Assembly: GCA_040877365.1 (NCBI GenBank)
Contig: JBBDNU010000153.1
Span: 5,049 to 69,048, forward strand
Direction of reading: 5' to 3'
Length of the DNA: 64,000 nt
Source: Planctomycetales bacterium
Lineage (GTDB): Bacteria; Planctomycetota; Planctomycetia; Planctomycetales; Planctomycetaceae
Under the pieces are notes generated by a model. The model searched no databases and had not been told where the DNA came from. It saw nothing but the letters and a program-made list of their open reading frames with translations. Within the stretch, counting starts at the first letter, position 1; each line of letters opens with the position of its first letter. This document shows, one piece after another, positions 11,627 to 44,726 of the stretch. Position numbers and translations under genes: made by a program.

Positions 11627-11682
11627 TAGCGGAATTCGCAAGAATTCGACTCGACGCGTCGGAATTCTTGCGAATTCCGCTA
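11627..11682. repeat. REP-like inverted repeat built from two copies of a 24-nt unit (TAGCGGAATTCGCAAGAATTC / GAATTCTTGCGAATTCCGCTA)
   Basis: 21-bp perfect arms (11627-11647 and 11662-11682). Each arm is itself a GGAATTC-loop-GAATTC(C) hairpin (7 bp in the right arm, 6 bp in the left). It lies 37 nt after the permease stop. The same unit recurs at 44660-44726. Confidence 0.9.
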
Positions 11683-11799
11683 CCCGCCATTTCGAGACGA
11701 CCTCTCGAAGCTCGCCCTGGGGCCGGGAAGTTCGGCATTGCCGTTGGCCGCGAGTGCTCGTATCATTTCGCAATGGCCCCGATTTCATAGATCTTGACC

Positions 11800-24464: not shown

Positions 24465-24548
24465 GTAGGGTGCGTCAACGCTCTGCGCAGACGCACCGCG
24501 GAGATGGCCGGGATTGGTGCGTCCGCGCAAAGCCTTGACGCACCCTAC
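24465..24548. repeat. nested palindromic REP-like element between convergent genes
   Basis: Outer arms are GTAGGGTGCGTCAA and TTGACGCACCCTAC (14 bp, perfect). Inner arms are CGCTCTGCGCAGACGCACC and GGTGCGTCCGCGCAAAGCC (imperfect). It ends 2 nt before the stop codon of the minus-strand oxidoreductase. Confidence 0.85.
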
Positions 24549-27789: not shown

Positions 27790-28332
27790 TCATCCACTTG
27801 CCTCTTGACCAAATTCAGCAGCCGAGACCCCGACGGCGCCGAGTCGGGCGGAATGCAGATACGGGGTTTCCAAGTCGTCGAGGCGAGTGTCGGGGAAATC
27901 GGCCGCGACGGAAATCCGGAGCTTCCAACCGTCGTGAGGGGCCGAGATCACGATTTCGCTGAATTCCGGCGTTTCCCAGTGCGCGGCACCGACGTAGATC
28001 GACTCGATCCACAGTTCGCGTTGAAGTCGCTCCAGATCAGCGGCTTCCCACCGAACCGACACCACCGGACTGATCGTCAACCGCGACTTCGCGACGTGCA
28101 TGTCGAGTGCTCCGCCCCCTTCGGTGTATCCAAGTTCCCAACAGTCGCGCTCCAGCACGATCGCGACCTTCTTTCCGCGGCGCGTTACCGCCTCCGGTAA
28201 GAACCGGGCGTCGTGCAGATAGCTGCAGAGGAACTGCACGTCGTGAACGAAATTCGGATCGCAGCGCGCCCGGAAGCGCAGCGGGCGGACTTTATCGCGA
28301 CGGAAGAGGGCGGAATAGTCGGGGAGGTTCAA
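27790..28332 (-). CDS. hypothetical protein (about 180 aa)
   Basis: Coding-like composition from NLPDYSALFRRDK onward. The nearest in-frame start is TTG at 28332. The upstream part of the 238-aa ORF is the palindromic element 28426-28506. No family recognised. Confidence 0.5.
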   Translation of the reverse strand: MNLPDYSALFRRDKVRPLRFRARCDPNFVHDVQFLCSYLHDARFLPEAVTRRGKKVAIVLERDCWELGYTEGGGALDMHVAKSRLTISPVVSVRWEAADLERLQRELWIESIYVGAAHWETPEFSEIVISAPHDGWKLRISVAADFPDTRLDDLETPYLHSARLGAVGVSAAEFGQEASG

Positions 28333-28425
28333 TAGCAGGATAGTCCGTCTAGCGTTGGACGGAACGCACCGGCCGGCGGACGCCGGCCGCTCGCTTTCAC
28401 TTGGCGTTGTTCTCGGTGCGGGAAC

Positions 28426-28506
28426 GTGGGGCAGGCTTTCCAGCCTGCCGGGATTCACTCGCGGGGCCGCGATCACGGGGGCGGCAGACAAGGATGTCTG
28501 CCCCAC
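28426..28506. repeat. MITE/REP-like element with termini GTGGGGCAG...CTGCCCCAC (copy A)
   Basis: Contains hairpins GGCAGGC-tttcca-GCCTGCC and GGCAGACA-agg-ATGTCTGCC. It sits 1 nt from the stop codon of the FGE-type gene. A second copy is at 30338-30431. Confidence 0.85.
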
Positions 28507-28507
28507 T

Positions 28508-29602
28508 TCACTTGGCGTTGGTCTTCGTCCGCGCGTGCTGGGGGATCACCGGGTCGAGCTTGAGCTTGGCGCGCTCTTCCGCCGTCGGGGGGACGAGCGG
28601 GCGGACGATCCGGAAGCCGACGAAGTCGGCGTCGGTGTGGTACCACACGCTCTTCGGAAGCTGCGGATCCTGCACCTTCCACGATTCGTCCGACTTCTCG
28701 CGGGCGGCGCTGCGCAGTTTGTCCGCGTCGTCGAACCACGAGCCGCCGCGGGCCACGTGCGGATACTCCTTCGTCGCCACGCACAGCGGGTTGAGCGACG
28801 CGCCGTTCTTGCCGCAGAGCTGGTAAAATCCGGGATCGTGCTGGTCGAGGCACCACTCGGCGACATTGCCGTGCATGTCGTAGAGGCCCCACGGGTTCGG
28901 CTTCTTCAGGCCGACCTTCTGGTACTTCTCGCCGCTGTTGTCGTAATGCCAGGCGTAGTCGTCGAGCTTGCCGGGACCGTCGCCGAAGGAATACGCGCCG
29001 GTCGTGCCGGCCCGGCAGGCGTATTCCCATTCCGCCTCGGTCGGCAAGCGGTAGAAATGCCCCGTCTTCGCGGAAAGCCATTGGCAATAGACCTGCGCGG
29101 CGAGGTGCGTCATGCAGATCGCGGGATAGCCATCGTGACCCATCCCGAAGGTCATGTCGGTGTAAGGGGCGGTGGGGCGGGTGACGGCGTCCGCGAGCTT
29201 GTCGAGATCGGACGATTCCGCCCCGACGAGCATGCGCCGCTGGATGTCGAGGTCGAAATTCCAGACGTCGTACTCGTCCCAGGTGACCTCATGCTTGCCC
29301 ATCCAGAAGGGGGCGATGCGCACCTTGTGCTGCGGCCGCTCGTCGTCCGCGCCGTTCGCTTCGTCGGCCGGGCTGCCCATCAGGAACTCGCCGCCGGGAA
29401 TCGGGACCATCTCGAAGGACACGTCGGTCCCGGCGATCCGCTGCCGATACGGCTTCATCGCGGACTCGCTCTCCGCGACCGCGGCCTCTGGAGCGTCCAC
29501 GGCATCGGCCGCGATCGCCGCCCGCGCAGAAACCACGATGCAACTCGCGACGAGGCAGAGAACGAGCGTCGTGGCGGAACGAAATCGTGCAAACGAGATC
29601 AT
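28508..29602 (-). CDS. formylglycine-generating enzyme (SUMF1/FGE) family protein, secreted
   Basis: Signal peptide [24 protein letters not shown]-sulfatase motifs [39 protein letters not shown] and HGNVAEWC. Confidence 0.9.
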
Positions 29603-29697
29603 GCTGGAATTCGTTCGACGCGAAGGCGCGAAGACGCACAGGAGCGCAAAGCAGGCAGAAAGCATTTCAGATCATCTTTCTGTTGGAAATGTACCGA

Positions 29698-29787
29698 CCA
29701 CGGATGAACACGGATATTCCTTCTTCATCAGTGCCCATCAGTGGAATCCGTGGTTTCCGACCGTTTGCGTCTTTGGGTCTTTGCGTC
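29698..29787. repeat. composite repeat in divergent intergenic region (CCACGGAT...ATCCGTGG inverted repeat, CATCAGTG x2, GTCTTTG x2)
   Basis: Read directly from the sequence. It lies between the FGE-type gene start (29602, minus) and the apbE start (29840, plus). The motif type resembles 49121-49140 (ATCCGTGGATGTGGATGAAT). Confidence 0.5.
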
Positions 29788-29839
29788 GAGAATGGATGAA
29801 GTCGGTGGATGGTCCGGAGCGAAATCGAAAGGTCGAGCG

Positions 29840-30988
29840 ATGAGGATGATGGCGTGTCTGCTGCTGGCGGGAGCGTGCGGTGCGTTGCCGTGTGATGCGG
29901 AACCGGCCGACGCCCCGGTTGTCGAACCGGCCGCGGAGCCGGAACTCCAGCGGTTCGAGTACTTGAAGCCGCACATGGGGGTGGCGTTCGTCATTCGATT
30001 GTACGCCGCCGACGAAGCGGCGGCAAACCAGGCCGCCGAGGCCGCTTTCGCCCGGATCGCGGAACTGGACGGCATCCTCAGCGACTACGATCCCGACAGC
30101 GAGCTGATGCGATTGTGCCGCGACTCCGGACCCGGCAAACCGGTCCAGGTGAGCGAGGAGCTGGCGTACGTCCTGTCGCGGGCGCTGACGCTGGCGGAGC
30201 GGACGGACGGGGCGTTCGACGTGACGGTGGGACCGGTGGTGCGGCTGTGGCGCCGCGCGCGCCGCCGCCGCGAAATGCCCGACGCTGCCGCGCTCGCCGA
30301 GGCCCGCGCGCTCGTCGGCTGGAAGAACGTCAGGCTCGTGGGGCAGGCTTTCCAGCCTGCCGTCGGGGAAAGCTCGGGCAACCGCGCCAGGCAGACAAGC
30401 CACACAAGGCAGACAGTAATGTCTGCCCCACGGGTCGAGCTGCTCAAACCAGGGATGCGGCTCGACCTGGGAGGGATCGCCAAGGGCTACGCCGGGGACG
30501 AGGCGCTCCGCGTGCTTCGCGCGCACGGCATTGGCCGCGCCCTCATCGACGGCGGCGGCGACATCGTCGTGGGAGATCCGCCTCCCGGCCGCGAGGGCTG
30601 GCGGATCGGCGTTGCCCCGCTCGAGAAGCCGGATGGCCCCCCGAGCCGGCATCTCATCCTCGCCAACCAGTCGGTCGCCACGTCGGGGGACGCCTTTCAA
30701 CACGTCGAGATCGCCGGCACGCGATACTCGCACATCGTCGATCCGAAGACGGGCCTCGGCCTCACGAGCCGCTCGAGCGTGACGGTGATCGCCCCGGCCG
30801 GCATCGACGCCGACGCCCTCGCCTCCGCGGTGAGCGTGCTCGGGCCGGAAAAGGGCATCGCGCTCATCGACGCCACGCCCGGCGCGGCGGCGCTCGTCGT
30901 CCAGGTGGAAGAGGGAAAGCCGCGGACGTTCGCGTCGAAGAAGCTGTCGCGGTTCGAGGAATCGACGGATGAGGAAAACGGGCGATGA
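29840..30988 (+). CDS. apbE: FAD:protein FMN transferase (ApbE family)
   Basis: Signal/lipoprotein-like N-terminus. ApbE motifs FDVTVGP and LDLGGIAKGYAGD. An in-frame element is inserted just before the LDLGGIAKGY block. Confidence 0.9.
   Translation: MRMMACLLLAGACGALPCDAEPADAPVVEPAAEPELQRFEYLKPHMGVAFVIRLYAADEAAANQAAEAAFARIAELDGILSDYDPDSELMRLCRDSGPGKPVQVSEELAYVLSRALTLAERTDGAFDVTVGPVVRLWRRARRRREMPDAAALAEARALVGWKNVRLVGQAFQPAVGESSGNRARQTSHTRQTVMSAPRVELLKPGMRLDLGGIAKGYAGDEALRVLRAHGIGRALIDGGGDIVVGDPPPGREGWRIGVAPLEKPDGPPSRHLILANQSVATSGDAFQHVEIAGTRYSHIVDPKTGLGLTSRSSVTVIAPAGIDADALASAVSVLGPEKGIALIDATPGAAALVVQVEEGKPRTFASKKLSRFEESTDEENGR
30338..30431. repeat. MITE/REP-like element GTGGGGCAG...CTGCCCCAC (copy B) inside the apbE CDS
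   Basis: Same termini and hairpins as 28426-28506 (GGCAGGC-tttcca-GCCTGCC and GGCAGAC-agtaat-GTCTGCC). It encodes VGQAFQPAVGESSGNRARQTSHTRQTVMSAP. Confidence 0.85.
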
Positions 30989-31036
30989 ACGCCGTATAAT
31001 GCGCCAAGCCTGCAATACCATTCGAGGAGTCGCGAC

Positions 31037-31282
31037 ATGAATGTCAACGTCGAACCGGAGCTGGAGGACTTCGTTCGCGAACTGCTCAGCGACGGCACGT
31101 TTCGTGACGAATCCGAAGTCGTCAACGCCGCATTGCGGCTTCTTGGGAGGCGCGCCGGACTTCGTGAGGAACTGGCAACCGCACTGGCACAGTGCGAGCG
31201 CGGAGAGCTGATCGAAGAGGACGTGCTGTTCGCGGAGCTGCGCAAGCGCGTCTTAAGCCGTGGGGTCGATCGGGAAGCCTGA
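31037..31282 (+). CDS. parD: ParD-family ribbon-helix-helix antitoxin
   Basis: 81 aa. MNVNVEPELEDFVRELLSDGTFRDESEVVNAALRLLGRR matches the ParD/COG3609 N-terminal pattern as I recall it. The stop overlaps the next start (TGATG). Confidence 0.8.
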   Translation: MNVNVEPELEDFVRELLSDGTFRDESEVVNAALRLLGRRAGLREELATALAQCERGELIEEDVLFAELRKRVLSRGVDREA

Positions 31283-44659: not shown

Positions 44660-44726
44660 GTAGCGGAAGTCGCAAGACTTCCGATCGCACGCAACACAGT
44701 GTCGGAATTCTTGCGAATTCCGCTAC
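44660..44726. repeat. REP-like pair: GTAGCGGAAGTCGCAAGACTTCCG ... CGGAATTCTTGCGAATTCCGCTAC
   Basis: Second locus of the 24-nt unit seen at 11627-11682. It starts 29 nt after the ispH stop. The left copy carries the T>G and A>C pair that keeps the GGAAGTC-GCAA-GACTTCC hairpin. Confidence 0.9.

Follow-up and report, generated by a model that had tools for sequence, protein, structure and literature searches.

The palindromic elements of Rickettsia (RPEs) are reportedly selfish palindromes that lie in frame in genes, are translated, and are tolerated in surface-exposed regions; they are longer than the element described here, A+T-rich, and belong to an obligate intracellular alphaproteobacterium. 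The repetitive extragenic palindromes (REPs) of the GTAG-tagged superfamily are palindromes of 20-40 nt with a 5' tetranucleotide tag, of which degenerate versions are recorded, among them the GTGG tag of most GTAG-20 units of Opitutus terrae; in the parts of that account drawn on here, REP dimers are inverted, with spacers of 20-100 nt that are often variable, and most REPs lie near the 3' ends of open reading frames (ORFs), some being intragenic, with dimers that encode 20-30 aa (Di Nocera et al., 2013; PMC3733652). A gene for a REP-associated tyrosine transposase (RAYT) that itself carries a REP insertion has also been mentioned (Quentin et al., 2018; PMC6006769). Here we describe a 94-nt dimer of two inverted REP units that lies in frame within apbE in a stretch of 64,000 nt from a Planctomycetales bacterium (assembly GCA_040877365.1, contig JBBDNU010000153.1, positions 5,049-69,048 of the forward strand), referred to below as the window. 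Probably the dimer was copied in frame into a turn of the ApbE protein, where it persists as tolerated selfish DNA in an enzyme whose modelled fold is kept.

An inverted REP dimer within apbE

The window ORF encodes a full-length ApbE (PF02424, 4.3e-74, profile positions 1-265 of 266), and the REP dimer begins at 30338, where codon 167 starts. The original prediction, made from the DNA letters, had described 31 in-frame residues inserted just before the LDLGGIAKGY motif, and its translation proved exact; the insert sits 11 residues before that motif. In the two nearest relatives (P0002 and P0003; 72 % identity by BLASTP, 76-77 % in MAFFT alignments) the protein reads ...GWK.VRL-DE(R/C)ART-VELLK..., and in the window ...GWKNVRL-[VGQ...SAPR]-VELLK..., with 32 aa in place of 6. 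The corresponding DNA is CTC/GACGAGCGCGCCCGCACC/GTCGAG in both relatives (loci L001 and L002) and CTC/element+GG/GTCGAG in the window, the distance from CTC to GTCGAG being 18 nt and 96 nt respectively, a net gain of 78 nt or 26 codons. This is not a pure insertion, as 16 of the 18 loop nucleotides of the nearest orthologues are missing from the window, and it is because of this loss that the frame is kept, the 94-nt element being 1 mod 3; the element is without a stop codon in the frame used. Had orthologues that lack the repeat family still possessed this segment, the prediction would have fallen; the segment is missing from both relatives at the protein and the DNA level, and among the 120 best planctomycete orthologues 74 have the basal spacing by motif regex and 92 have a turn of 5-6 aa by alignment. 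No target duplication was seen at the apbE copy; the similarity of the VRL and VEL flanks was considered as a duplication and rejected, since empty orthologues show it too. The notion that the spacer keeps ancestral loop codons (NRARQT against ERART) was also dropped, the shared CGCGCC hexamer being within chance by our own estimate.

The second copy in the window is intergenic. Two forward-strand positions in the window, 28426 and 30338, and no others carry the 24-mer GTGGGGCAGGCTTTCCAGCCTGCC, which 100 dinucleotide shuffles never produced, and GGCAGACAnnnATGTCTGCCCCAC is present at 28483-28506 and 30408-30431. Aligned with each other, the copies agree at all 25 positions of the 5' end and at 21 of the 24 positions of the 3' end, and both hairpins that had been proposed as common to them (GGCAGGC-TTTCCA-GCCTGCC and GGCAGAC-loop-GTCTGCC) were found, so that the claim of one family present as an intergenic and as an in-frame coding copy is borne out by the REP units of both. 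Each end consists of a GTGG tag and a hairpin of 7-8 bp, the second unit being inverted so that the tags face outwards, and the four window units (28426, 28483(-), 30338 and 30408(-)) each have a perfect stem, 8 bp long when the G of the tag is included, and a 4-nt loop. For the RNA forms of the two elements the predicted folding energies are -43.2 and -47.7 kcal/mol (z = -3.0 and -4.7). Their spacers, of 33 and 46 nt, align no better than shuffled sequence (score 4.0 against 4.4 +/- 1.6, p = 0.64). Similarity limited to the hairpins had been named as grounds for giving up the family, and literally that is what is found; the REP family is not refuted by it, because the family is defined by the tag with its hairpin, a unit that recurs widely and flanks RAYT genes.

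The boundaries of the apbE copy, 30337/30338 and 30431/30432, are the exact points at which metagenome contigs carrying other copies diverge from the window. In contigs that hold the window stretch from two sediment metagenomes (Logan assemblies X1 and X2), the 5' unit stands out with a word depth of 12x and 25x the baseline of its flanks, and additional REP copies with 5-nt spacers are present at genome-like depth. The empty-site joint 30337/30432 was seen in none of the source-metagenome contigs, a weak negative, as contigs drop rare variants.

The 94-nt segment is thus a dimer of two inverted REP units of the GTAG-tagged superfamily, GTGG being a degenerate GTAG. All four window units, which are the dispersed copies within its 64 kb, combine a tag with a G+C-rich palindrome, and both copies are paired in inverted orientation. 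A scan of the window for a GT[AG]G tag with a perfect stem of 7 bp or longer returned 14 hairpins, against 1.95 in Markov shuffles, and brought in two further families with a true GTAG tag (Table 1).

Table 1. Features of the window, elements at the ApbE turn of orthologues, and other genes that carry units in frame (positions without a locus prefix refer to the window; L001-L127 are loci screened alongside the window, L128-L247 are JGI metagenome contigs)
Feature	Position or locus	Strand	Remarks
apbE/ftp (FAD:protein FMN transferase) ORF, 382 aa, intact	29840..30988	+	Pfam, orthologue alignment, model
Beta-hairpin codons	30329..30445	+	Strands N164-L166/V167 and R198-L201; turn carries the insert
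REP dimer in apbE, 94 nt	30338..30431	+	Encodes V167-P197 and first base of R198
5' REP unit	30338..30361	+	GTGG tag and hairpin GGCAGGC-TTTCCA-GCCTGCC; read as VGQAFQPA
Spacer, unique, 46 nt	30362..30407	+	Holds partial extra 3'-arm copy GGCAGACAAG at 30390-30399
3' REP unit, inverted	30408..30431	-	GGCAGACA-GTA-ATGTCTGCC and CCAC (complement of GTGG); read as RQTVMSAP
Intergenic REP dimer, 81 nt	28426..28506	+	Units 28426-28449 (+) and 28483-28506 (-); 33-nt spacer
FGE-sulfatase (SUMF1-like) gene	28508..29665	-	Divergent from apbE
14-nt exact direct repeat TTCACTTGGCGTTG	28396..28409 (left), 28507-28520 (right)	+ (left)	Right copy includes FGE-sulfatase stop codon
GTAG-CGGAAKTC-GCAA-GAMTTCCG family	2199-2222, 11660-11683, 44660-44726		Last is a tags-outward dimer
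GTAG-GGTGCGTC...GACGCACC family	24465-24548		Tags-outward dimer
Classic GTAG dimer at ApbE turn	L126, L124		T[GTAG-GATGGGCACTCTTGCCCGTCC-21 nt-GGACGGGCAAGAGTGCCCATC-CTAC]
~30-bp-stem hairpin at ApbE turn	L122, L127		
GATGGCA-repeat hairpin at ApbE turn	L123		
In-frame host, RACo	L009		
In-frame host, Lhr helicase	L013		
In-frame host, GH42-like protein	L014		
In-frame host, M1 peptidase	L018		
In-frame host, FecR/beta-helix protein	L095		
In-frame host, ThiD2-ThiE	L099		
In-frame host, GH3	L155		Six units in interdomain linker
In-frame host, AMP-binding enzyme	L190		Three units
In-frame host, S8 peptidase	L205		
In-frame hosts, two homologous AAA-TPR proteins	L226:8443-11172, L247:320-3205		

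The ApbE turn and its other occupants

An AlphaFold2 model of the window ApbE, built on an alignment of 79 orthologues (mean predicted local distance difference test score, pLDDT, 89.9; predicted template modelling score 0.86), keeps the ApbE fold despite the insert, with Foldseek placing it at a template modelling (TM) score of 0.88 and E = 1e-27 to Treponema pallidum Ftp (4ig1/4xdr), and at target-normalised TM scores of 0.83-0.90 over the Ftp/ApbE structures. Strands assigned by DSSP to residues 164-167 and 198-201 flank the insert, and pLDDT falls to 49-55 for residues 171-190; the insert, which the prediction had proposed to check as a surface loop, is accordingly modelled as a low-confidence loop between strands, consistent with an excursion from a beta-hairpin turn at the surface, and is probably disordered. 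When the protein is run against the PDB with phmmer, the match to T. pallidum Ftp is split into query residues 46-166 and 194-354, and structures 4ifu/4xdt have 5 residues opposite query residues 167-193. All 39 of the alignment columns that are invariant among the 79 orthologues are kept in the window protein, including DLGG, SGD and RYSH; the conserved residues retained are D209-L210-G211-G212, G216, S282-G283-D284 and R295-H298. Translation of the insert would yield, for example, the peptide VGQAFQPAVGESSGNR.

The turn is occupied in many other orthologues. More than 8 extra residues are found there in 28 of the 120 best orthologues, and inserts of 17-64 aa lie at the same turn in 27 orthologues other than that of the window, each with an intact ORF; elsewhere within the 120 proteins there are only three internal insertions of 8 aa or more, none of them palindromic. 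One planctomycete clade accounts for 26 filled and 7 empty cases, with three types of insert mixed among close relatives. In the DNA of representatives three types of element are seen (Table 1); each starts no more than 1 nt from the Leu codon at the end of the first strand, part of the loop being replaced here again. Judged from its different clade, its empty sisters and its different repeat family, the event in the window is independent of these other inserts. The turn of ApbE is an unusually frequent landing site, used by several repeat families, and this is the part of our results that a specialist might not expect. Two of the element types at the turn, A and C (C being that of L126), were not met among the other loci, an uninformative negative, as those loci were chosen for another family.

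These counts bear on the possibility that the insertion inactivated apbE, with an ORF that looks intact merely because the G+C-rich repeat happens to lack stop codons and little time has passed since the event. The near-identity of the termini of the apbE copy to those of the intergenic copy does suggest a young event, and the distance to the DLGGIAKG motif is short, but every invariant column is retained, the fold around the loop is modelled with high confidence, and the other insert-bearing orthologues, some of whose insert types are common to diverged sequences, point to long-term tolerance. We regard inactivation as improbable.

It is conceivable, although we think it unlikely, that the turn acts as a landing pad at the level of DNA and is more than a stretch of protein that tolerates inserts, where at least four unrelated palindromic families (the GTGG-GGCAGRC dimer, a GTAG-GATGGGCA dimer, the ~30-bp-stem hairpin and the GATGGCA-repeat hairpin) start 0-1 nt from the same Leu codon and replace one another in close relatives, with REPs homing to existing hairpins or REPs. 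If this were true it would amount to turnover of REPs at fixed sites, a pattern that the spot downstream of the FGE-sulfatase gene also shows.

The repeat family and its presumed mobilisation

The GTGG-GGCAGRC family, with its T/C-rich loop of the TTTCCA type, is undescribed and very widespread. When the GTDB representative genomes were scanned for GTGGGGCAGRCNNNNNNGYCTGCC, at least 119 stretches matched, of which by our estimate about 70 could be chance matches in 596 Gb, so that singletons carry little weight; chance does not account for inverted doublets of 50-90 nt or for metagenome-assembled genomes (MAGs) with matches on multiple contigs. Among the matches listed there are three main stem/loop types, of which GGCAGGCGCTTTCGCCTGCC belongs to Bryobacterales and Terriglobia, GGCAGACATTCCTGTCTGCC to Planctomycetota and relatives, and GGCAGGCTTTCCAGCCTGCC to Planctomycetia, Acidobacteria and 'delta proteobacterium' MAGs. 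The hybrid pair of the window recurs in L025 with a spacer of 1 nt, and doublets are also found in planctomycete MAGs. The identical 24-mer is present in seven further loci (L025, L028, L050, L074, L095, L106 and L108), which come from Planctomycetota, Acidobacteria and 'delta proteobacterium' MAGs and include some Mb-scale contigs; its occurrence across phyla indicates that the REP/RAYT system has spread horizontally, that constraint is strong, or that some contigs were wrongly binned. The exact 24-mer also occurs in at least 120 JGI metagenome contigs, in which 69 of 166 units have an inverted partner 2-60 nt away, the spacer being different each time.

Some spacers of 58 nt hold added hairpins in which the TTTCCA/TGGAAA loop is kept and the stem is changed, which suggests that the loop is the recognised part of the unit. 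Composite long dimers with spacers of 58-60 nt were seen in L177:1427-1484, L193, L218, L228 and L230, with two more hairpins inside, of stems GGGCGAC, CCGGGC and GCGGAC. Tandem arrays of the 24-nt unit also exist, with periods of 30, 31, 36 and 51 nt (L155:3078-3251, L150:7-185, L157:88-183 and L183:6463-6588); in the first of these, six 30-nt units read in frame as (VGQAFQPAxP)x6 and lie in the linker between the two GH3 domains.

Units within or between Pfam domains, tested as stop-free frames of at least 80-100 aa on either side of the REP unit followed by a Pfam search, were found in frame at no fewer than 11 other loci (Table 1). In the two homologous AAA-TPR proteins the units stand at the same position before IAALFQS, one in L226 and several in L247, so that, beside the ApbE turn, there may be another coding site that is shared or used recurrently. 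Eight of the 13 validated in-frame cases, among them the window and L132, read as VGQA(F/L)xPA (binomial p about 3e-4 against 1/6, our estimate), although the 13 cases are few and not all independent. This bias in frame argues that such inserts are translated and filtered by selection.

It has to be asked, then, whether the insert was selected for a function, either as a peptide loop that binds a partner or serves as a linker, or through a hairpin in the RNA or DNA by which the stability or translation of the mRNA, or supercoiling, is tuned. The recurrent occupation of the turn, the bias in frame and the strong predicted RNA structure speak for such a function, but purifying selection against less tolerable frames explains the bias equally well, and inserts of such varied length from unrelated families, alternating with empty sites among close relatives in a loop modelled as disordered, speak against it. 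A function of this kind seems to us decidedly improbable, and the most fitting view of the insert is that of selfish DNA that is tolerated, not of a functional module.

The means of mobilisation are suggested by two Y1 transposase genes among the metagenome loci, found with a screen for HUH and Y motifs and scored against the RAYT profile of NCBIfam (REP_Tyr_transpos, NF047646; cutoff 80 bits). That at L158:1764-2411 scores 102.6 bits (1.8e-10 on Pfam Y1_Tnp), and that at L132:1895-2653 scores 77.7 bits. Both are flanked by units of this family: in L158 the units lie at 1834-1859 and 2364-2387, one 75 nt upstream of the domain and the other, inverted, over the last codons, and in L132 there are an upstream dimer and a degenerate downstream dimer (1821-1932 and 2667-2760), with one unit in frame inside the gene. 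That unit of its own family, at 2361-2384, is read as RQAGKPAP and lies between the HUH and Y motifs. Two RAYT genes adjoining the repeat in 0.62 Mb are far above chance for a single-copy gene, and the family is presumably mobilised in trans by a RAYT, a HUH/Y1 enzyme acting on single-stranded hairpin DNA. The same motif screen of L001-L127 gave no match, and two REP-bracketed genes, in L025 and L072, were rejected as RAYT candidates, as reading their ORFs revealed no Y1 transposase; that in L025 looks, by eye, like a gene of the serine-hydrolase/beta-lactamase type.

The FGE-sulfatase/apbE pair is conserved at all six orthologous loci whose contig reaches upstream of apbE; the contig of a seventh, L125, stops about 66 nt short of apbE. 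The locus of P0002 has the gene order of the window, with the FGE-sulfatase gene divergent from apbE, which is followed by a ParD-like gene, and the short contig of P0003 has apbE and then the ParD-like gene. In the window an ORF for a ParD-like antitoxin lies directly 3' of apbE at 31037-31282 (Pfam 3e-4), and L001 has ParD-like and ParE genes there. The intergenic REP dimer reaches to 1 nt from the FGE-sulfatase stop codon, and a 14-nt direct repeat (Table 1) encloses it together with 16 nt on its left side. At the orthologous spot in L001 (6674-6809) there is a different REP family, GTAG-GACGGAAT-nnn-ATTCCGTC. A scan of 28000-31000 against Rfam (E <= 1) returned two sub-threshold matches to miRNA models and no known RNA family.

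The 14-nt repeat is relevant to the label first given to the element, which named it MITE/REP-like. Were it a classical MITE, a miniature transposable element with inverted repeats, it would derive by deletion from a DDE-type insertion sequence (IS) and be recognised by its terminal inverted repeats, and its termini (GTGGGGCAG...CTGCCCCAC) are indeed inverted repeats. The apbE copy is without a target duplication, however, none was seen on the 12-nt flanks of about ten doublets elsewhere (by eye, not systematically), and the 14-nt repeat stands 16 nt away from the element on one side; the body differs in every copy, single units and one-end tandem arrays exist, units flank Y1/RAYT genes, and no parent IS was seen. 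The REP part of the label stands on the tagged hairpin units and the MITE part is not supported, so that we consider a MITE origin very improbable. Misassembly, with contigs wrongly joined through the repeated hairpin, is extremely improbable: assembly X2 does break exactly inside the 5' REP unit, but a 1,500-nt contig of run X1 covers 30100-30700 with no differences and a uniform depth of 77, and on either side of the element the sequence is that of apbE, collinear and with the frame unchanged.

The most plausible course of events is that a REP dimer mobilised by a RAYT was copied into the beta-hairpin turn that precedes the FAD/Mg-binding DLGGIAKG motif. The replacement of 18 nt by 96 nt would have preserved the frame, the G+C-rich element being stop-free in it, and the ribosome would read through to give an enzyme with a surface loop about 26 residues longer and its conserved residues kept. 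We infer that the insert is translated, that ApbE activity is retained and that a RAYT mobilised the dimer in the source organism. Several observations weigh against this account. The nearest empty sites come from genomes just 72 % identical in ApbE by BLASTP (76-77 % in alignments), so that they only approximate the pre-insertion sequence, and the loss of 16 nt may date from the insertion or from later. The window copies are alike in their REP units only and are therefore not copies of one replicating doublet; the 14-nt direct repeat around the intergenic copy is not predicted by IS200/RAYT chemistry; and no RAYT gene was found in the 64-kb window by the HUH/Y motif screen, which is crude.

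Significance and comparison with known systems

Selfish DNA in protein-coding genes, of which the RPEs and the REPs inside Opitutus genes are known examples, is extended by this finding to Planctomycetota from the environment, and an undescribed REP family is documented together with its candidate RAYT. It also provides a natural map of tolerance for ApbE/Ftp, in which the turn between residues 164-167 and 198-201 takes 17-64 extra residues in many lineages, and this is of use in protein engineering of flavin transferases. For annotation, segments of this kind should not be taken for new domains or frameshifts. The hotspot, with turnover at the same site, offers a tractable case for distinguishing choice of target by REPs from selection as the sole filter.

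A literature search with the letters of the repeat motif gave only coincidences with eukaryotic primers. The closest match in kind is with the GTAG-tagged REPs, with which the elements described here share the tag, the inverted dimer, the variable spacer and an intergenic copy beside the 3' end of an ORF; in contrast, the family with the GGCAGRC stem and TTTCCA loop, and its peptides, are not in the tables of that paper, ApbE is not among the hosts of intragenic REPs listed there, and nothing on several families that recurrently occupy a single orthologous turn stands in its passages, as far as the parts drawn on here extend (Di Nocera et al., 2013; PMC3733652). As in the REPIN-RAYT systems, in which REP doublets form hairpins, the inverted REPs can fold into one long hairpin, and RAYT genes are flanked by their own REPs as a REPtron, here in L158 and L132. 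REPIN copies share their spacer, whereas the spacers here differ between copies, even within one genome (L044 against L080, from one MAG), and REPIN populations are described as lineage-specific, whereas the exact 24-mer is found here in MAGs of different phyla (Bertels & Rainey, 2011, PMC3116915; Quentin et al., 2018, PMC6006769). With the bacterial MITEs of enterobacteria and cyanobacteria the element has in common that it is small and non-autonomous, has inverted termini and can lie in frame, but a conserved body, target duplications and an origin from a DDE-type IS are features of MITEs, and none of them is seen at the apbE copy (reviewed in PMC10969869).

The likeness to the RPEs of Rickettsia lies in the tolerated in-frame insertion; the element itself, a short, tagged, RAYT-linked hairpin, is unlike them, and membership of that group is judged implausible from composition and host. 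The event in apbE is a new instance of the intragenic REPs described in 2013, with behaviour like that of an RPE.

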